The notes beneath the pieces were generated by a model, which saw nothing but the letters and a program-made list of their open reading frames with translations, did not search any database and was not told the origin of the DNA. From positions 32,001-96,000 of the forward strand of contig JAUSFL010000023.1 of NCBI GenBank assembly GCA_030649735.1: a DNA stretch of 64,000 nt. Reading direction: 5' to 3'. Numbering within the stretch: the first letter of the stretch is position 1; every line of letters starts with the position of its first letter. Both the position numbers and the translations under genes were made by a program. Source of the DNA: Candidatus Iainarchaeum sp. Its GTDB lineage: Archaea; Iainarchaeota; Iainarchaeia; Iainarchaeales; UBA10191. Positions 13,690-29,125 of this stretch are shown here, one piece after another.

Positions 13690-13742
13690 TTTCTTCATTT
13701 TTCGCTTTTTTCCAAGGGCTTAAATACCAAAAGGCTTTTATT

Positions 13743-13768
13743 AACTGTAATCAGTAAATAATACAGTT
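13743..13768. promoter_or_regulatory. Inverted repeat AACTGTA-N12-TACAGTT, candidate TrmB operator
   Basis: Directly downstream of TTTTATTAA and upstream of the TrmB gene. Confidence 0.35.
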
Positions 13769-13795
13769 TTGCGTGTTTTTCTAGAGTGATTTTTA

Positions 13796-14557
13796 ATGGC
13801 TGCTGAATCGATTGAATTGCTGGAGCAATTAGGGCTTACAGAATACGAGGCCAAGACTCTTTCCACATTGTTCAGGCTTAAGGAAACAGAGGCTCCGGAA
13901 ATCAGCCGCTTGGCCCAGGTTCCAAAAACAAGGGTTTATGATGTATTGGAGCGCTTGACAAAGCGCGGCCTGGTGATTGAAATTTACGGCAGGCCGAAAA
14001 AATACCGCGTTATGGAGCCGGAAACTGTCTTTGAAGAATTGATTAATGGAAAAAAGGCGGAGATTAAAGGCCTTGAGGAAAAGGCAAGGATTGTCAAAAA
14101 CTTGTTTGGCAATGTGAAGCTTTCTGAAGAAGAGTCCGGGGAAAAAGTCATGAAAGTCAAGGACAAGAATGACTTTTTGCGGATTCTCGCGCAAGAAATT
14201 GATTCCGCAAAAAGCGAGGTTGTGGCTTTCTCAAAGCTTGACGAAAACCAGGCAATCTTGAAGGAAGCATTGCATAATGCCTTGGAAAGGAATGTTAACG
14301 TGAAAATGCTTTCAAAAGTCCCAAAGTCTTTAAGCGCTGAGGCAAAGCTTTTTTCAAAGAATGGAATGTCCTTGAGAGACCATGATCATGGAATGAACGC
14401 TTACATCATTGATGGAAAAAAAGTCATTTTGGCATTGAGCGATTTTTCAAAGGAAAAGCCAGAATACCATTTTACTATCTGGAACAACCACAAGCCAATG
14501 GTCAACACAATCCAGAAATACTTTGACCACTGCTGGGCCCAAGGCAAAGATGTTTGA
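13796..14557 (+). CDS. TrmB-family transcriptional regulator
   Basis: LGLTEYEAK, VPKTRVYDVL, GRPKKY; PLD-like effector domain IIDGKKV. Confidence 0.9.
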   Translation: MAAESIELLEQLGLTEYEAKTLSTLFRLKETEAPEISRLAQVPKTRVYDVLERLTKRGLVIEIYGRPKKYRVMEPETVFEELINGKKAEIKGLEEKARIVKNLFGNVKLSEEESGEKVMKVKDKNDFLRILAQEIDSAKSEVVAFSKLDENQAILKEALHNALERNVNVKMLSKVPKSLSAEAKLFSKNGMSLRDHDHGMNAYIIDGKKVILALSDFSKEKPEYHFTIWNNHKPMVNTIQKYFDHCWAQGKDV

Positions 14558-20893: not shown

Positions 20894-21709
20894 ATGGGCC
20901 AGAAAGTTGTTGCAGTTATTGCAGCGCATAATGAGGAAGTTTCAATTCAGGACACTTTGGAAATCCTTAATTCTTTCAGGCAAAAAAGGCTGCTTGATGA
21001 AATTGTGGTTGTGAATGACGGCAGCACTGATAGGACTGCTGAGATTGCAAGGCGTTTTGGCGCTGTTGTTGCAAGCCATTCAAGAAACCAGGGAAAGCGG
21101 GCTTGCTTTATTACTGGCGCTTTCAAAGCAAGGGAGCTTGGCGCTTCCACAATGTTTATGCTTGATGCGGACATCATGGAATTCCCGGAACAAACTTTCA
21201 GGAAAATGGTTTCTTCAGTGACTAGTGAGGGAAAGCTGATGGCAATTGCGCAGCAGTTTGAGGAATCGCCCAGCCCTAAGGAAGTCCTTGACGGCGTTTC
21301 GCATTACAAAGTCAATAACTATCATTCTAATGCCCAAAGGGCTTTTAGCATTAGTGCATTGGAGCCATTGTTTAGGAACAACAAGAAGTGGGTTTCTTTG
21401 CTCACTTCAAAGGCTCATAAGTTCTTGACTCGTACTGAAAAGGCTGCTGGCAGCAAGTGGGGCCTTGAGTTTGCGTTGGACTATTTGATTCCCGCAGGAA
21501 AAGCTGTCTTTCTTCAGGAATTTCCTGTTTGCACTAGGCCTGCTTTCAGGAAGAATTCCAACCATGGAATGGTGCAAGAGCAGGGCAGGGGAATTGTGAA
21601 AATGAAAATGGCTGAAAGGAAGAATGCCGCGAAAAAGCTTTGGAGATTAAGGGCGAGAAAAAAATTTGCCAAAAGCCCAAGGCATGTTGTTTTGAAAAGG
21701 CCGCTTTAG
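20894..21709 (+). CDS. GT2 glycosyltransferase with basic C-terminal tail
   Basis: AAHNEE, VNDGSTD, DAD motif. Confidence 0.8.
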   Translation: MGQKVVAVIAAHNEEVSIQDTLEILNSFRQKRLLDEIVVVNDGSTDRTAEIARRFGAVVASHSRNQGKRACFITGAFKARELGASTMFMLDADIMEFPEQTFRKMVSSVTSEGKLMAIAQQFEESPSPKEVLDGVSHYKVNNYHSNAQRAFSISALEPLFRNNKKWVSLLTSKAHKFLTRTEKAAGSKWGLEFALDYLIPAGKAVFLQEFPVCTRPAFRKNSNHGMVQEQGRGIVKMKMAERKNAAKKLWRLRARKKFAKSPRHVVLKRPL

Positions 21710-23373
21710 ATTTTCAATTCCTTGTCTTGCTCGAAAGAAATGCCTTTCTTTAACGCGATTTCTGCCTTTTGCAGTTCTGTTCCAAGGTACATTGCGTGGC
21801 TTCCTTGCATGCTGATGTCGTTTGAGATTCTGGAGTACAGTTCTTTTGCAGTCTTTCCGCCCCACATTCTTAATGCCTGCGAGCTTTCAGGATGCATTAA
21901 AGTGCATGAAATTTCTTCGCCTTTTAATTCCACGAGAAAGTTTCCTTTCGCATCTCTAAAGTCCTTGCGTGGTTTTCTGTAAAGCTTTAGGGCTGTTTCA
22001 ACCTGCTGGTAGTAGTTGTTGTAGATTTGCGCGCTGCTTGAAATTATTATCAATAATCCGCAAGGCACTTTGATTGCTTCCGCAATTTCTTTCTGGATTG
22101 CGGCCATTCCGTAGGCGTTTTCAGGCCAGCCTTGAACCATGTCATGGCTTCTGAAATAAACTGTTAAATTCAATTTTTCGTCCTGGACCATTGCCTGAAT
22201 CATCACTAAGCAAGGAGAGCTCTTGTGCTTTCTTAAAAGCTCGTCTGCGGGATGCCATGTCACTGCAACAATCGCTTTTGAGTAAGGGTCGCGCTTTAAG
22301 GTTTCAATCATGTCTTTCACTTGATTTATTTCCGCTTTTTCCCCGTTGAATTTCACGTTTTCGAGAATGAATTCTCCCTTTCCGAACTCGAAGTTTTGGA
22401 TTGCGTCATTTTCCAAAAGTTCTTTCAGTTCCTTGCTTGAAGGGCTGTAGTAAGCGCGGAGCTTGTTTCCGTAAGTGTATGCCTTTCCTGCTGGCAGTTC
22501 TGGCGAAAGAATTTCTGACTGGTATGCGCGGATTTTTTCAACAGTCAATGGAATCAGGAATGGATTCAATGACAAGTCCATGTTTTGCGCGTCTTCAATA
22601 ACGCACGCCATGTTGTTTATTTCCTTCACCCAGCGGTCAGTATTCGCGTTCATCAGGTTTTTTCTTCCGTAAGTGTAAATTGCGTGAATCATTTCCAGCC
22701 AGGTTTCAGGAATTGTTTTCCCCTGAACCAGTAAAGGCCCGCCTTCGAAAGGCAGGCTTTCACCCATTTCTTCAAACGCAAAAACCACTGGATTTTCCAA
22801 GAATACCTTTTTCTTTTCCAATGTTTTCAAAAGCTCATTTGCTCTTTCAATTTTTTCATCCAATGATGCATTGGGCATTTCAGAGTTCAAATCTATCAAT
22901 TGCACGTTTTCCGAGACTTTTTGAATCATTCCTGTGGGGATGTTCTTGTCAAAGTAAACCGCGCTTTCAAATCCTGGAATTTTTCTTTCGCCAGTAATTC
23001 CTTGCTTGAAAAACGCGCGGATTGCGTTAGCGCTTGTCACTTGCTGCAGGCCTTGGTTGTTTGGGGAAGCGCAGGCATACTCGTTGCCGAGCATTATCAT
23101 ATAGCGTATTTGCGGGTTTGCAAGTAAATTCCTGACCATTCCCGCAAGCCCTGCTGGAGTGTAAAAGTTTGTCGCGATTGCAAGGTTTTCTTTGGAAAGC
23201 TTTGGCATTATTACATCACGCATTGTCCAGAGGAAAGTGACTGAGACTTGCGCGTCATTAAGTTCTGCGTCTTTTCCGACAGCGAACGAGACCCTGTCTT
23301 TCACAACCACTGGCCAGCCTTTGCCTCCAGTGCTGTCTTTCTGGTTTTTTATTTCATCAATCAATCCAGCCAT
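21706..23373 (-). CDS. Thymidylate synthase fused to MtrA-like N-domain and DUF4346-like C-domain
   Basis: YTYG, SPCL, FRSHD...PEN; N-terminal RNLLANPQIRY; C-terminal HAMYLGTELQKA...FEQD. Confidence 0.8.
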   Translation of the reverse strand: MAGLIDEIKNQKDSTGGKGWPVVVKDRVSFAVGKDAELNDAQVSVTFLWTMRDVIMPKLSKENLAIATNFYTPAGLAGMVRNLLANPQIRYMIMLGNEYACASPNNQGLQQVTSANAIRAFFKQGITGERKIPGFESAVYFDKNIPTGMIQKVSENVQLIDLNSEMPNASLDEKIERANELLKTLEKKKVFLENPVVFAFEEMGESLPFEGGPLLVQGKTIPETWLEMIHAIYTYGRKNLMNANTDRWVKEINNMACVIEDAQNMDLSLNPFLIPLTVEKIRAYQSEILSPELPAGKAYTYGNKLRAYYSPSSKELKELLENDAIQNFEFGKGEFILENVKFNGEKAEINQVKDMIETLKRDPYSKAIVAVTWHPADELLRKHKSSPCLVMIQAMVQDEKLNLTVYFRSHDMVQGWPENAYGMAAIQKEIAEAIKVPCGLLIIISSSAQIYNNYYQQVETALKLYRKPRKDFRDAKGNFLVELKGEEISCTLMHPESSQALRMWGGKTAKELYSRISNDISMQGSHAMYLGTELQKAEIALKKGISFEQDKELKI

Positions 23374-24170: not shown

Positions 24171-25925
24171 ATGCCTACCATCAGGAAGCCAATCATCACA
24201 GTCCTTGGGCATGTTGACCATGGAAAGACCTCTTTTTTGGACGCCATTCGCGGAACCACTGTTGTTGAGAAGGAAGCCGGCAGGATTACGCAGCACATTG
24301 GCGCTACTGAAGTCCCAATAGAAGCAGTTACAAAGATTGCCGGCCCGCTTCTTGAAAAATACAAGTTTAATTTGACAATTCCCGGGCTTTTGTTCATTGA
24401 CACTCCGGGCCATGAGGCTTTTTCAAACTTGCGCAGGAGAGGCGGAAGCATTGCGGACTTGGCTGTTTTGGTCATTGACATAATGCAGGCCTGCCAGCCC
24501 CAGACTTCTGAAAGCATTGAAATCTTGAAGGCTTTCAAGGTTCCTTTTGTGATTGTTGCAAACAAGGTTGACTTGATTCAAGGCTGGGAAAAGCATCCTG
24601 GAATGAGCTTTACTGAAAGCATCAAGCTTCAGGAAGACTATGTTCAAACTGATTTGGATGAGAAAATTTACTGTCTGGTTGGGGAAATGTTCCACAAGGG
24701 CTTTGTGTGCGAGCGCTTTGACAGGATTTCTGATTTTACAAAGCAGGTTGCGATAATTCCTTTAAGCGCGAAAGACGCTGAAGGATTGCCTGAAGTTTTG
24801 CTTTTTCTTGCTGGCTTGAGCCAAAAGTTTTTGGAAAGCCAGTTGAGGATTGAAGTTTCAGGCCAGGGAAAGGGAACAGTGCTTGAAGTGAAGGAAGAGA
24901 AAGGGTTGGGAAAAACAATTGATGTCATTTTGTATGATGGCTCTTTGAAAGTCGGCGATGAGATTATTGTCGGCGCAGTTAATGGGTTTGTGAAAACCAA
25001 GATTCGCGCCTTGCTCCAGCCAAAGCCCTTGGATGAAATTCGCTCTCCAGAGCAAAAGTTTGATTCAGTCAGGGAAGTAAGCGCTGCAGTTGGAATAAAG
25101 ATTGCAGCCCCGAATTTGGAAGGCGTTCTTGCAGGCAGTCCTTTGATTGTTTACCAAAAGCCAGAGGATGAAGAGGAAGTGCTCAAGGAAGTTGTTGGAT
25201 TGAACATTGAGTCAGAGGCTTTGGGGCCTGTTGTGAGGACTGATGCATTGGGCAGTTTGGAGGCCTTGACAATGCTTTTGGACAAGGCCGGAATCAAGCC
25301 GCGCTTTGCGTCAGTTGGCGAGGTTTCAAGAAGGGACATTATTGAGGCTGTCGGCGTTGCCAAAGAAGACAAGTTCAAGGGAGTTGTTTTTGCATTCAAC
25401 ACAAAATTGAATGACGGCGCTGTTGAAGAATTGAAAAAAAATCCAGTGAAAGTTTTTTCAGCAAATGTCATTTACAGGCTCATTGAAGATTATGAAAAGT
25501 GGGTTAGTGATGAAAACGCGGCAGAGAAAAAGTCTGTTTTGGAAAAAATCGTGTTTCCTGCAAGAATCATTGTGGTCCGAAATTGCATTTTTCGCAACGC
25601 AAATCCCGCGATTGTTGGAGTGAAGGTTTTGGGCGGCAAATTAAGGCCTGGCGCCAAATTGTTCAATGGCGAGAAATTGCTTGGCGAAGTCATTGCAATA
25701 CAGGACAAGGGAAGCAATTTGCAGGAATTAAAGCAAGGCCAAGAGGCCGCGATTTCCATAACTGACGCGGTTTGCGGCCGCAATCTTTTCGAAGAGGACG
25801 AGCTTTTGACAGTGCTTTCAGTCAATGATTATGCGGAAATTTTGAAAATAAAGGACGCCTTTACGCAGGCTGAATTGGACTTGGCTGAAGAAATCAGGAA
25901 CAAGTTAAGGAAGCAAAGCAAGTAG
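24171..25925 (+). CDS. infB: Translation initiation factor aIF5B
   Basis: GHVDHGKT, ITQHIGA, DTPGHE, NKVD. Confidence 0.95.
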   Translation: MPTIRKPIITVLGHVDHGKTSFLDAIRGTTVVEKEAGRITQHIGATEVPIEAVTKIAGPLLEKYKFNLTIPGLLFIDTPGHEAFSNLRRRGGSIADLAVLVIDIMQACQPQTSESIEILKAFKVPFVIVANKVDLIQGWEKHPGMSFTESIKLQEDYVQTDLDEKIYCLVGEMFHKGFVCERFDRISDFTKQVAIIPLSAKDAEGLPEVLLFLAGLSQKFLESQLRIEVSGQGKGTVLEVKEEKGLGKTIDVILYDGSLKVGDEIIVGAVNGFVKTKIRALLQPKPLDEIRSPEQKFDSVREVSAAVGIKIAAPNLEGVLAGSPLIVYQKPEDEEEVLKEVVGLNIESEALGPVVRTDALGSLEALTMLLDKAGIKPRFASVGEVSRRDIIEAVGVAKEDKFKGVVFAFNTKLNDGAVEELKKNPVKVFSANVIYRLIEDYEKWVSDENAAEKKSVLEKIVFPARIIVVRNCIFRNANPAIVGVKVLGGKLRPGAKLFNGEKLLGEVIAIQDKGSNLQELKQGQEAAISITDAVCGRNLFEEDELLTVLSVNDYAEILKIKDAFTQAELDLAEEIRNKLRKQSK

Positions 25926-25937
25926 TTTTTCCGCACA

Positions 25938-25968
25938 TTTTTTAAATTCCTCGCAAGTTATTTATTGT
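25938..25968 (+). promoter_or_regulatory. Promoter of the ilv leader, likely leaderless transcript
   Basis: TTTTTAAA..CCTCGCAAG..TATTGT with the same TATA-to-TATTGT spacing as the L7Ae promoter; ATG follows at 25970. Confidence 0.6.
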
Positions 25969-25969
25969 C

Positions 25970-26047
25970 ATGTTTAGTGCAATGCCATCAAAAGTTCTGC
26001 TGCCAGTCGCTGTTTTGGTAGTCTTGGTTGTTGCACTGGTTGCTTAA
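25970..26047 (+). CDS. Putative ilvB leader peptide MFSAMPSKVLLPVAVLVVLVVALVA
   Basis: 25 codons with 8 Val and 5 Leu within codons 9-24; ends 86 nt upstream of ilvB; not in the ORF track. Confidence 0.7.
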   Translation: MFSAMPSKVLLPVAVLVVLVVALVA

Positions 26048-26080
26048 GCATTCCTGAAAAAAATCGAATTCTGGGAGTGC
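26048..26080 (+). promoter_or_regulatory. RNA hairpin immediately after the leader stop
   Basis: GCAUUCCU-GAA / UUC-U-GGGAGUGC. Confidence 0.55.
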
Positions 26081-26133
26081 GGGATTAAAAAGTTCAGAAG
26101 TCTTTAGAAAAAAAGGAAAGAAAGTGGAAAAAA

Positions 26134-27837
26134 ATGAATGGTGCTGAGGCAGTGTTGAAGGCATTGCAGGAAGAGAAAGTCAGGCATTCTTTCGGGGTTA
26201 CTGGCGGTTCTGTAATTCCATTGTTTGACGAGTACTTCAAGGACAATCATGAAATCAGGCACATTCCAGTAAGGCATGAGCAGGGCGCTGCGCACGCGGC
26301 TGACGGCTATGCAAGGGCTTCTGGAAAGCCAGGAGTTTGCATTGCGACTTCAGGCCCTGGAGCAACTAATTTGGTCACTGGAATAATGACTGCTTTCATG
26401 GATTCTAGTCCAATGGTTGCTTTGGGCGGGCAGGTTGCTACTTCGCTGATTGGGAATGACGCCTTTCAAGAGTCTGACATGATGGGAATAACTCTTCCAA
26501 TAACAAAGCATAATTTTCAAATCCGCTCTCCGGAAAAAATCAATTCCACAATAAAGAACGCGTTCAAGATTGCGACCACTGGAAGGCCCGGGCCTGTTTA
26601 CATTGACTTGCCTAAAGACACTTTAATGAAGGAAGTTTCTGCTGTGGAGAAAGTTCCATTGCATGGCTATAAGCCGAACTTGAAAGGCCATCCATTGCAG
26701 GTGAAAAAGGCTGCAGAGCTTTTGCTGAATGCCGAAAGGCCTGTCTTGCTTTTGGGCGGCGGAGTCATTCTTGCAAACGCCGCAAAGGAAGCTGCAGAAT
26801 TGGCTTTGGAATTCAACATTCCAGTAATAACCACTTTAATGGGAAAGTCGGCATTTCCTGAAACAAATGCTCTCTCGCTTGGAATGCTTGGCATGCATGG
26901 GAGAAAATGCGCGAATTACGCTATTTCCAATGCTGATGTGGTTTTGGCTGTCGGCTGCAGGTTTAATGACAGGATTACTGGAAAGCTTTCAACATTCTTG
27001 AAGGACGCAAAATTAATCCACATTGACGTTGATAATTCAGAGATTGGAAAAATCGTTCCTTCAGCAATTCCGATTGTTGGGGACGCAAAGCTTGTTTTGC
27101 AAGACTTGCTTTTGGCCGCAAAAAAGTTTTCTTTAGCGAAGAAAACAACTTGGTCTGAAAAATTAAAGGTTTTGGCGAAAGAATGCGACTGTGACTTGAA
27201 TATTTCTTCAAATCCGGCAGACCCTAAAAGAGTGATTTTTGAAATTTCCAAAGTCCTCAAGGAAAATGACATTGTAACCACTGGGGTAGGCCAGCATCAA
27301 ATGTTTGCAGCGCACTTCCTAAAGCGCGATAGGCCAAGGACTTTCATTTCCAGCGGCGGCGCCGGAACAATGGGATTTGGATTTCCTGCCGCGATTGGCG
27401 CAAGGCTTGCAAGGCCGGATTCTGAAGTTTTCAACATTGATGGCGATGGAAGCTTTGGAATGAATGTCCAGGAGCTTGCAACCTGCAGGTTTGAAAACAT
27501 TAAGGTCATTCCGGTAATTTTCAATAATTCTTACTTAGGAATGGTCAGGCAGTGGCTTGAACTGTTTTATGAAAAGCGGTATTCCACTGTTGACTTGGGG
27601 CAAAGCACTGACTTTTCTAAAATTTCTGAAGGCTTTGGAGTGAAGGGATTGAGGGTTGAAAGGCCTTCAGAGCTTGCTGAAGCGTTCCAGGCCGCGTTGA
27701 AGAATGATGAAACAACTGTAATTGATGTTGCAATCGCGCCAGAAGCAAACATCACTCCAATGTTTTCTGCGGGCTCTTCAGTCTTTGAAATGTTCGGACC
27801 TTGCATTACTGAAAATTATTTTAAGAGGGCATTGTAA
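26134..27837 (+). CDS. ilvB: Acetolactate synthase large subunit
   Basis: RHEQGAAHAADGYAR, TSGPGATN, GMHG, GDGSF, GMVRQW. Confidence 0.95.
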   Translation: MNGAEAVLKALQEEKVRHSFGVTGGSVIPLFDEYFKDNHEIRHIPVRHEQGAAHAADGYARASGKPGVCIATSGPGATNLVTGIMTAFMDSSPMVALGGQVATSLIGNDAFQESDMMGITLPITKHNFQIRSPEKINSTIKNAFKIATTGRPGPVYIDLPKDTLMKEVSAVEKVPLHGYKPNLKGHPLQVKKAAELLLNAERPVLLLGGGVILANAAKEAAELALEFNIPVITTLMGKSAFPETNALSLGMLGMHGRKCANYAISNADVVLAVGCRFNDRITGKLSTFLKDAKLIHIDVDNSEIGKIVPSAIPIVGDAKLVLQDLLLAAKKFSLAKKTTWSEKLKVLAKECDCDLNISSNPADPKRVIFEISKVLKENDIVTTGVGQHQMFAAHFLKRDRPRTFISSGGAGTMGFGFPAAIGARLARPDSEVFNIDGDGSFGMNVQELATCRFENIKVIPVIFNNSYLGMVRQWLELFYEKRYSTVDLGQSTDFSKISEGFGVKGLRVERPSELAEAFQAALKNDETTVIDVAIAPEANITPMFSAGSSVFEMFGPCITENYFKRAL

Positions 27838-28340
27838 TGAGTTTTGAGAAAAAATCCAATGGGTTGAGAAAGCACATTGTTGGAATGCTTGTGAATGACG
27901 AGCCCGGGGTTTTGGCAAAGATTTCCGGAATGTTCACTCGCCGCGGCTTTAACATTGACACTATCATTGTCGGAAAGACAAACATTCCTGATGTTTCCCA
28001 CATTGTAATAAGCCTTTTGGGGAATGACAGGACTATAGAGCAGTTGGACAAGCAATTGTACAAAATGATTGACATTGTAAAGCTTGCTGACTTTAGCGAG
28101 TCAAATGCAGTGGTTCGAGAGCATTGCCTCTTGAAGGTTTCTTCCACTGAAAAAAGCGTTGAGCACTTGAATAATGTATGCAAACTTTTCGAGGCCCGCG
28201 TGCTTCACGTGAACACTGAAAGCGTCATTGTGGAACTCGCAAGCTCTCCTTCAAAAATTGATTCATTGATTGAAACCCTTGCCCCTTTTGGAATCAAGGA
28301 ATTAAGCAGGACCGGAGTCAACGCGCTGCAGAAAGACTGA
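27837..28340 (+). CDS. ilvN: Acetolactate synthase regulatory (ACT) subunit
   Basis: NDEPGVLAKISGMFTRRGFNID, ELSRTG. Confidence 0.92.
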   Translation: MSFEKKSNGLRKHIVGMLVNDEPGVLAKISGMFTRRGFNIDTIIVGKTNIPDVSHIVISLLGNDRTIEQLDKQLYKMIDIVKLADFSESNAVVREHCLLKVSSTEKSVEHLNNVCKLFEARVLHVNTESVIVELASSPSKIDSLIETLAPFGIKELSRTGVNALQKD

Positions 28341-28405: not shown

Positions 28406-29125
28406 ATGCCTCAAATCATCCGTCAAGGCGTTGCTGCCAAGTGGCGTTCTGAAAGACTGCAGCAAGCGCGGAAAAGCCTTCATGACAAATTAAGGGTTTT
28501 CAAAGGGGCCAGCGCGCATCAGAGGAGAATGTACGCTGACTTGAGGAAAACAATTGTTTTTGGAAAGAAATTCCTTTCAACTTTTCCTGAAATTGAAGTG
28601 CGCGGGAAGAAAAGGAAAAAATTTGCATTATTTCTTTCTAGGACTGATTGGGAGTCTCCGGTTTCAATTGCATTGAATGTCCAGGACGTGCCAAAGGGAA
28701 GCAACTTGCCTGGCGCTTGGCATCCCAGGCTAATGCAAAGCAAGCTTGCTGAAGCCGGCTTGGAATTTGACAAAAATAGTGTAATAATGACTCTTCAAGG
28801 AAGGCAATTAACTGAAAGAGAGCAGAAAGCCAAGCCATTGCTTGACTTGTTCAAAAACTGTTCTGGAAAATCTTGGGCTGACTTTCTTGTTGAAAGAGTT
28901 GAAGAGCACGCAAGGCAATTGGGCTTTAAGCAATGCAAAATCAGGGAGCCAAGCACGCTCGTATTTTACCAAACTCCAGTGGTTTCAAAGCCTGGCAGTT
29001 CCAGAAGGCCTGCAACTGATGGGGAAAAATTGAAAATCAGGCAGCAAATGCACAAGCTGTATGACGGCACTGCATTAAGCCACCATTACAGGAAAGAAGG
29101 AGAATTTTGGGTCAAGGATTTGTAA
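28406..29125 (+). CDS. Basic orphan protein, C-half resembling VirK/YbjX (DUF535)/GNAT fold
   Basis: IMTLQG...FLVERVEEHARQLGF...LYD...GEFWVKDL; TATA about 25 nt upstream. Confidence 0.6.
   Translation: MPQIIRQGVAAKWRSERLQQARKSLHDKLRVFKGASAHQRRMYADLRKTIVFGKKFLSTFPEIEVRGKKRKKFALFLSRTDWESPVSIALNVQDVPKGSNLPGAWHPRLMQSKLAEAGLEFDKNSVIMTLQGRQLTEREQKAKPLLDLFKNCSGKSWADFLVERVEEHARQLGFKQCKIREPSTLVFYQTPVVSKPGSSRRPATDGEKLKIRQQMHKLYDGTALSHHYRKEGEFWVKDL

Follow-up and report, generated by a model that had tools for sequence, protein, structure and literature searches.

Does the short open reading frame (ORF) that precedes the acetolactate synthase genes ilvBN in an archaeal genome encode a leader peptide whose translation controls the operon? 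Leader-peptide attenuation, the textbook form of regulation through transcription-translation coupling, is regarded as an invention of bacteria. The locus lies in a 64,000-nucleotide stretch from Candidatus Iainarchaeum sp. (GenBank assembly GCA_030649735.1, contig JAUSFL010000023.1, positions 32,001 to 96,000), which we call the window and whose numbering is used throughout. The ORF at 25970–26047 is in our view probably a leader peptide gene, a cis-acting sensor in a ribosome-mediated attenuator, with no role for its product as a protein. An original prediction, made from the sequence of this stretch, had proposed that a translated Val/Leu leader acts as a ribosome-mediated attenuator of ilvBN. 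Comparison with related genomes strongly supports that proposal, but the competing pairings placed within the ORF were not shown to be conserved. The leader and its operon comprise the following features.

25940–25947, forward strand: TATA box of the putative leader promoter, TTTTAAAT, read from the sequence; it stands 22 nt upstream of the ATG, with its first base 30 nt before it.

25970–26047, forward strand: leader ORF, 25 codons plus TAA (stop at 26045–26047), with the peptide MFSAMPSKVLLPVAVLVVLVVALVA, from sequence and translation.

25994–26044, forward strand: putative regulatory run, codons 9–25 in translation, with 8 Val, 5 Leu, 3 Ala and 1 Pro and no Ile or Phe.

26048–26080, forward strand: stop-adjacent hairpin a:a', with arms 26048–26055 and 26073–26080 and up to 11 pairs (26048–26058 with 26070–26080), from RNAalifold and folds.

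26066–26102, forward strand: candidate alternative helix b:b', 26066–26075 with the conserved 26093–26102 (TTCAGAAGTC), from complementarity and masked folds.

26103–26107, forward strand: conserved NTTAG tail after b' (TTTAG in the window), from leader alignments.

26134–27837, forward strand: ilvB, acetolactate synthase large subunit, the putative controlled gene (Pfam TPP_enzyme N, M and C; NCBIfam TIGR00118, 765 bits vs. a cut-off of 538).

27837–28340, forward strand: ilvN, acetolactate synthase small subunit, whose start overlaps the ilvB stop (Pfam ALS_ss_C and ACT_AHAS_ss).

What the original prediction had read directly from the letters holds. Thirteen of codons 9–24 encode Val or Leu (8 Val and 5 Leu) and none Ile, a TATA box precedes the ORF, a hairpin begins right after the stop, ilvB starts 86 nt past the stop, and no U-tract follows. 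The TATA box upstream of the leader ORF is the single one at the window locus. Measured from the first base of the TATA hexamer, its distance to the ATG is 28–30 nt; the corresponding distance is 24–36 nt in 24 of 40 leaders and 26–30 nt in 18 of those. Because this spacing places the transcript start at or next to the ATG, we infer that the leader ORF is leaderless. An SD-like (Shine-Dalgarno-like) 4-mer upstream of the ATG was found in none of the 40 leaders, the window included. The ilvB gene of the sister species has an SD sequence (GGTGA) and a TTG start.

Short ORFs are abundant in intergenic DNA. A leader ORF was defined as an ATG-ORF of 12–45 codons with at least 7 Leu or Val among its last 12 residues. 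The genome that contains the window has 1148 intergenic ATG-ORFs of 12–45 codons; three of them reach 7 Leu/Val in the last 12 residues, and just one, the window's leader ORF, reaches at least 9. Orthologues of ilvB (E-value of 1e-150 or better) are present in 35 of the 196 genomes of the order, giving 34 evaluable loci, as one (L038) was left out because a contig end cuts it. The first gene of most loci is not ilvB: leuA mostly precedes it, and leuC-leuD lie upstream in a few. A leader ORF was found no more than 400 nt before the first gene at 26 of the 34 loci, and a scan of whole loci raised the count by five, of which three lie between leuD and ilvB and two before a leuA located further upstream. 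That scan dropped L018 and L045 solely since a spurious long frame covered each. In all, an equivalent leader ORF precedes a leuA- or ilvB-led operon at 31 of 34 loci, in seven families of the order, and the Val/Leu upstream ORFs that the original prediction proposed to look for before ilvB in relatives are thus present. The whole-locus scan placed 40 ORFs of this kind before leuA or ilvB vs. 5 elsewhere. On metagenome contigs fetched with the ilvB protein, 19 of the 30 closest loci (of 42) have a leader ORF; among the 11 others, three come without any upstream DNA and four with just 630–1670 nt of it. The observed leader ORF is real and not a product of chance.

No ATG-ORF satisfying this definition was found at L033, L034 and L035. 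Two of these, L034 and L035, share a block just after a TATA box (GGTGTTTT, then ATCGTACA), about 60–330 nt before ilvB, together with Leu-rich frames that have no ATG; these may be a leadered variant.

What is conserved in these ORFs is the run. The leader peptides are 17–32 residues long (plus two longer calls), their N-terminal halves are unrelated, and all of them end in a run of Leu and Val. In an alignment of 26 leaders, a T is nearly invariant at every third base of the ORF part, which is the second position of Leu and Val codons. Tails before leuA contain 55% Leu, 24% Val, 3.6% Ile and 0.3% Phe, vs. 20% Leu, 10% Val, 16% Ile and 12% Phe in hydrophobic 12-mers from long ORFs of the window's genome, some of which may be spurious. 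Only 2 of 1062 such 12-mers contain at least 9 Leu plus Val. Because the Leu/Val share is this high and Ile and Phe are nearly absent, the predicted run is one of Leu and Val as such and unlike an ordinary membrane segment; selection would then act on codons and not on protein. All six Leu codons and all four Val codons occur in the runs, and CTA is mildly enriched (13% vs. 6% in flanking genes). A single special rare codon was considered as the target of selection and discarded, given this use of all Leu/Val codons and the mildness of the CTA excess.

The composition of the run also shifts with the content of the operon. Before leuA-led operons the Val share of the tail, V/(L+V), is 0.18–0.44 (mean 0.31, n = 30). 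Where ilvBN stands alone it is 0.67 (window) and 0.57 (sister species), and it is 1.0 in two ilvB-only loci labelled Woesearchaeota, whose tails are Val with little Ala or Ser. A rank test gives p = 0.001 for this shift, in which kin are not independent and about three lineages carry the difference.

The RNA past the stop codon is the second conserved component. RNAalifold predicts one helix in the 26 leaders, the stop-adjacent hairpin, with compensatory changes in all 8 of its 8 pairs and standard pairs in 85% of cells. When the whole two-helix structure was compared with shuffled alignments, none of 500 shuffles matched it on three covariation measures and on cells paired, and 6 of 500 did so on further pair types. 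The stop-adjacent helix predicted from these alignments is proven by covariation. In almost every leader it begins 0–2 nt past the stop.

A covariance model derived from the 26-leader alignment has a single strong match in the window's genome, where no other match falls below E = 0.04. Across 151 genomes of the order it gave 21 strong matches, one per genome, with a further 18 weak matches (E from 7e-4 to 0.01) outside that count. The three matches outside the training set with a readable downstream gene (G123, G174, G119) all stand before leuA; in G132 the contig is too short for the downstream gene to be read. Class- and phylum-wide searches with the model brought no further family, since almost the entire phylum belongs to this order. 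The original prediction had named conservation of the peptide away from ilv genes as the case that would speak against it; the element is instead single-copy and was found only at leuA/ilvB operons.

Which second structure might the hairpin compete with? The original prediction had proposed pairings of in-ORF segments with the end of the ORF. One of these, 25974–82 with 26031–40, does occur in the free-RNA minimum-energy fold of the window, but conservation was not demonstrated for these in-ORF pairings. Downstream of the ORF lies an alternative partner that is conserved, 26093–26102, and that had been missed. Sixteen of the 26 leaders show complementarity between a conserved block 15–20 nt downstream and the hairpin loop together with the beginning of the 3' arm. 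Helices b:b' and a:a' share bases 26073–26075 in the window and 1–5 bases across leaders, and because of these shared bases the two would be mutually exclusive. Over 17 sequences, 77% of b:b' cells pair, vs. 33–54% with slid partners. With the 5' arm a masked, as it would be by a ribosome at the stop, b:b' is predicted to form at −10 to −21 kcal/mol in 8 relatives. The NTTAG tail always follows the b' block and is kept in L236, the sister species, despite a diverged b'; it is possibly a weak U-rich release or pause site. As an internal promoter the b' block was rejected: in L022, L025, L036, L040 and L042 it lies just 20–24 nt before the start codon, with an SD sequence between.

Tracts of T provide a different potential off signal in other leaders. 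A run of at least five T lies between the stop and the gene in 18 of 32 Iainarchaeota leaders, often 10–25 nt past the stop and inside the loop. Leaders without a second helix carry T runs in the loop or past the hairpin instead, and the majority of leaders have either an alternative partner or a U-tract. L029 and L031 carry U7 after the hairpin. A ribosome 10–12 codons before the stop would there leave the end of the ORF to pair with the 5' arm of the terminator, and positions nearer the stop would leave the terminator intact; this predicted arrangement is the classical bacterial attenuator geometry.

If runs of codons act as sensors, other amino-acid operons of the same genome might carry them too, and the original prediction had suggested looking before the leu, trp and his genes. 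Two of these have candidate leaders. On contig C46 of the window's genome (locus L172:1021-1275), downstream of a TATA box runs a frame that has 9 Leu codons but no Val codon within a 12-codon stretch and that starts at a GTG (L172:1090) or at a non-canonical codon. The frame ends inside an 11-bp hairpin, whose 5' arm is formed by the last codons. It is followed by leuA, here a short gene for 388 aa (NF002086, 631 bits), and by leuS of the bacterial type (TIGR00396, 970 bits); models of bacterial type give the best scores for both genes. None of 29 other leuS loci has an upstream leuA or a Leu-run ORF, and 5 near genomes yielded no orthologue of this short leuA; as judged from these genomes, the putative leuA-leuS leader is a single case. 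A bacterial-type leucine-tRNA ligase is itself found in 109 of the 196 genomes of this archaeal order.

The second candidate stands before the trp genes. On the minus strand of contig C45 at about 13700–13900 (L173), a TATA box and a 10-codon ORF with one Trp precede trpE-trpG-trpD. For comparison, 12 of 30 fetched loci were chosen by eye as having the same trpE type and enough upstream DNA. An ORF of 7–11 residues with one Trp in a D-[S/L]-L-W context is present in 11 of these 12 (12 of 13 with the window's genome, G000), the twelfth being truncated. T-rich sequence follows the trp leader ORF (L173; L151-L154, L156, L157, L160, L163, L166, L168, L169). In the relatives, and not in G000, a tRNA-Trp(CCA) gene lies between the Trp ORF and trpE; ARAGORN detects it in 9 of the 12 loci, and in three further trp loci the gene is apparently intron-bearing. 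A tRNA-Trp gene within a trp leader is unusual.

The expectation failed for histidine: no His-run ORF was found before hisG at any of 24 loci, the one match, 350–480 nt upstream in L226, being unrelated. The mechanism is therefore not general to all amino-acid operons. In L212, L218, L219, L220, L222 and L226 the hisG frame continues without a stop ahead of its probable start codon. The short stretches encoded there resemble one another, with Pro-His/Tyr towards the beginning and Leu-Leu-x-x-Gln towards the end, and may be an N-terminal extension or an overlapping upstream ORF. Within the window's genome, no leader was found before leuB-leuC-leuD or before the second HMGL-like gene on contig C44. 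A whole-genome search for runs of 17 other amino acids in intergenic short ORFs gave 118 candidates, none of which, judged by eye with the downstream genes unannotated, stood before a gene of the cognate pathway.

Leaders with a comparable layout also occur outside the order, in lineages that their record labels assign to other DPANN groups. At 8 loci labelled Woesearchaeota, Nanoarchaeia or (in metagenome-assembled genomes, MAGs) Methanosarcinales, a TATA box lies about 30 nt before a Leu- or Val-run ORF. Six of these (L104, L107, L109, L111, L113, L139) precede leuA and two, the Val-only L115 and L134, precede ilvB. A hairpin unrelated to that of the window starts 2–3 nt past the stop, with oligo-U tracts following in most. 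Six Thermoplasmata MAG loci have no leader under the definition above. In one cultured Thermoplasmatales genome, that of Thermogymnomonas acidicola (L141:2433-2600), a 45-codon ORF with a Val/Ile-rich end, followed by a short hairpin, TTT and an SD sequence, stands directly before ilvB and is the single suggestive candidate outside DPANN.

How might such a leader work in the window? Transcription would begin about 25 nt past the TATA box, putting the 5' end of the mRNA at or next to the ATG, and a ribosome would load onto this end while RNA polymerase is still transcribing the leader. With charged Val- and Leu-tRNA plentiful, the ribosome would traverse the 13 Val/Leu codons to the TAA, where its footprint would cover 26048–26055. 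With these charged tRNAs scarce, it would stall early in the run and leave that arm free, and the hairpin at 26048–26080 would form once its 3' arm is made. The position of the ribosome would in this way select one of two folds, the 26048–26080 hairpin or the 26066–26075:26093–26102 helix. By analogy with bacterial attenuators, the fold set by a stalled ribosome would let the polymerase read into ilvBN. The fold set by a ribosome at the stop would lead to an off state just before ilvB, through premature and possibly factor-assisted termination at NTTAG, through pausing there, or through a post-transcriptional block. A search of sequencing runs for the locus turned up 5 DNA runs and no RNA run. 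From the arrangement of these elements we infer where transcription starts, that ilvB is co-transcribed, that ribosomes stall, which sign the response has and what the off step may be.

Two hallmarks of attenuators are present at these loci: a short ORF with a run of end-product codons in the leader of a biosynthetic operon, and a conserved ORF whose codon run persists and tracks the operon product although the remaining peptide is variable. A third, an intrinsic terminator of hairpin and U-tract before the first structural gene, is absent from the window, and this is the first of several findings that weigh against an attenuator. The longest T run between the stop and ilvB is 3, and no terminator-like site was found downstream of the leader ORF in the window. 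An archaeal polymerase is generally considered to depend on oligo-U to release its transcript. The window copy is at most attenuator-like and not a canonical member of the terminator type. In many other leaders oligo-T lies inside the hairpin loop, which a simple model does not explain, and in some lineages a ribosome at the stop would also mask the terminator-like hairpin; the sign of the response is for this last reason not derivable from sequence.

The alternative helix belongs to the same side of the balance. Its covariation over 17 sequences amounts to 3 double-change pairs, a number matched by 162 of 500 shuffles. Covariation is this low because both strands vary too little, and b' may be a conserved sequence rather than part of a helix. 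Within the window's genus b:b' is weak, with one A-G mismatch in the window and two in L236, and in a short masked fold of the window a different pairing beats it. About one third of leaders are without any alternative helix. As to the codon run, the Val-rich shift is confined to about three lineages, and in family f11 the leaders of ilvB-first operons, closely preceded by leuCD, remain Leu-rich. In four Woesearchaeota-type loci the conserved TATA-like GATTTATAAAAAAC lies some 30 nt ahead of leuA; it may be a separate leuA promoter and would then weaken the cis link there. The pathway that the putative sensor would serve looks incomplete in the window's genome. Neither ilvD (PF00920) nor the KARI C-domain (PF01450) was matched in this 92.7%-complete genome, and KARI_N gave two weak matches alone (27 and 19 bits); leuA, leuB, leuC and ilvE are present beside ilvBN. 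Either ilvC and ilvD fall within the missing ~7% of the genome, or the acetolactate synthase serves an incomplete pathway.

An alternative is a translated ORF that works in cis without being a classical-sign sensor of amino acids. Translation would then open the hairpin, or keep a ribosome close behind the polymerase at oligo-T, and so shield the transcript from polarity or termination, with the hydrophobic run either just tuning speed or coupling expression positively to supply. A hairpin placed 0–2 nt past the stop must be melted by a terminating ribosome, the T runs counted above often lie inside its loop, and in short-spacer leaders (L017, L043, L044, L032) it adjoins the main start, all as such protection would have it. 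It would leave unexplained why the run is confined to Leu and Val, is Val-only before ilvB-only loci and Leu-only before leuA-leuS, and gives way to Trp before trpE, and it would be physiologically senseless for a biosynthetic operon to respond positively to its own product. We regard this explanation as unlikely.

A functional small hydrophobic peptide, of a membrane or type-I-toxin-like kind, that merely travels with the operon is improbable. The 17 C-terminal residues of the window peptide are mostly hydrophobic, and the hairpin with oligo-U, or the possible second promoter, that follows some leaders would suit separate small genes. Yet Ile and Phe are nearly absent, unlike in hydrophobic segments of the window's genome, the tails of 8–10 Val in L115 and L134 are too short for a membrane span, the N-termini are unconserved, and there is one copy per genome, only before leuA or ilvB. 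The most conserved part is the RNA past the stop. Span length, the usual composition and independence from one operon, by which a small membrane protein could be recognized, were not found.

That last conservation might suggest that a structured RNA, such as a leader that binds a protein or a ligand, is what is conserved, with an open frame only by coincidence. Conservation is indeed higher in the hairpin and the TCAGAAGTCNTTAG block than in the peptide, and the block is kept where the pairing is lost. The frame nevertheless stays open in more than 40 diverged leaders, its ATG keeping a fixed spacing to the TATA box; the ORF part shows period-three conservation, and no Rfam family matches. We hold this account to be improbable as well. 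A chance ORF within an AT-rich spacer can be dismissed, since short ORFs are frequent (the 1148 above) but one alone attains the window's score, and its equivalent recurs at 31 of 34 related loci. The reading of the ORF as the sensor of a ribosome-mediated attenuator is the one we retain. The broader proposition, that leader-peptide attenuation is a regular control of amino-acid biosynthesis in DPANN, using leaderless first cistrons and, in lineages like the window's, no oligo-U terminator, is more tentative, and we would put it slightly short of an even chance.

The host is a DPANN archaeon of the Iainarchaeota; the neighbouring genes of the window, encoding aIF5B, ribosomal protein S6e, aIF2-gamma and an RpoE'-like protein (Pfam), mark it as an archaeon. 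Its genome assembly (G000) comprises 1.28 Mb in 51 contigs. Downstream of ilvN, after 65 nt, lies an ORF of 239 residues (28406–29125, forward strand) that is maybe part of the same transcript; no Pfam or NCBIfam family matched its product. Elsewhere in the window, 21706–23373 on the reverse strand encodes a 555-residue protein with MtrA-like, thymidylate-synthase and pterin-binding (DUF4346) domains, adjoining thymidylate kinase.

More than 40 conserved archaeal leaders, a phylum-wide comparison, runs that match the operon product and one helix proven by covariation make the question of the archaeal ribosome as a sensor directly testable. Searches of full texts outside subscription journals and supplements turned up no leader-peptide attenuator described from archaea, DPANN included. 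If our reading is correct, genome-reduced DPANN archaea regulate the few biosynthetic operons they retain. Under the broader proposition, an archaeal RNA polymerase, or a factor such as FttA, would have to read an RNA fold set by the position of the leading ribosome. This would constitute direct functional evidence of regulatory transcription-translation coupling in Archaea, to which the trp version would add a tRNA-Trp gene placed in the leader between the Trp-codon ORF and trpE. With no oligo-U in the window, hairpin- or factor-dependent release, or a post-transcriptional step, must act. Both FttA/aCPSF1-dependent termination and transcription-translation coupling occur in archaea, and FttA/aCPSF1 could supply the off step where oligo-U is absent, an idea that the original prediction put forward beside translational control.

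Our final question was how this leader compares with known systems. The Leu, Thr, His and Trp leaders and the leu/phe leader of Rfam are presumably the same functional class, if our reading is right. The archaeal element is not a member of any of these families: an Rfam scan of 25800–26300 with E-values up to 10 returned just two unrelated families, far below their gathering scores, and the leader RNA has no sequence likeness to any Rfam leader. In mycobacteria, leaderless polycysteine short ORFs are reported to attenuate operonic genes (bioRxiv 10.1101/834739). As described, they share with the archaeal leader a leaderless first cistron, a predominance of one amino acid's codons there and control of cognate-pathway genes. 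Unlike the archaeal leader, the system described is bacterial and Cys-specific, and nothing in it points to common descent. The closer comparison is with the bacterial branched-chain leader-peptide attenuators: the enterobacterial ilvBN, ilvGMEDA and leu leaders and the Corynebacterium ilvB upstream ORF (PMC10272879, PMC11857589), together with the general model of ribosome-mediated attenuation (PMC1183508). The archaeal leader differs from these in its archaeal host, its TATA-box promoter, its probably leaderless ORF and the lack of a U-tract in the window. Its run is also far longer, at 9–13 codons, and reaches the last codon. Like them, it combines a short leader ORF carrying a run of end-product codons with a stop that abuts an RNA arm and with candidate alternative helices that share bases; the composition of the run follows the content of the operon, and in one related lineage a hairpin and U7 form the predicted terminator.

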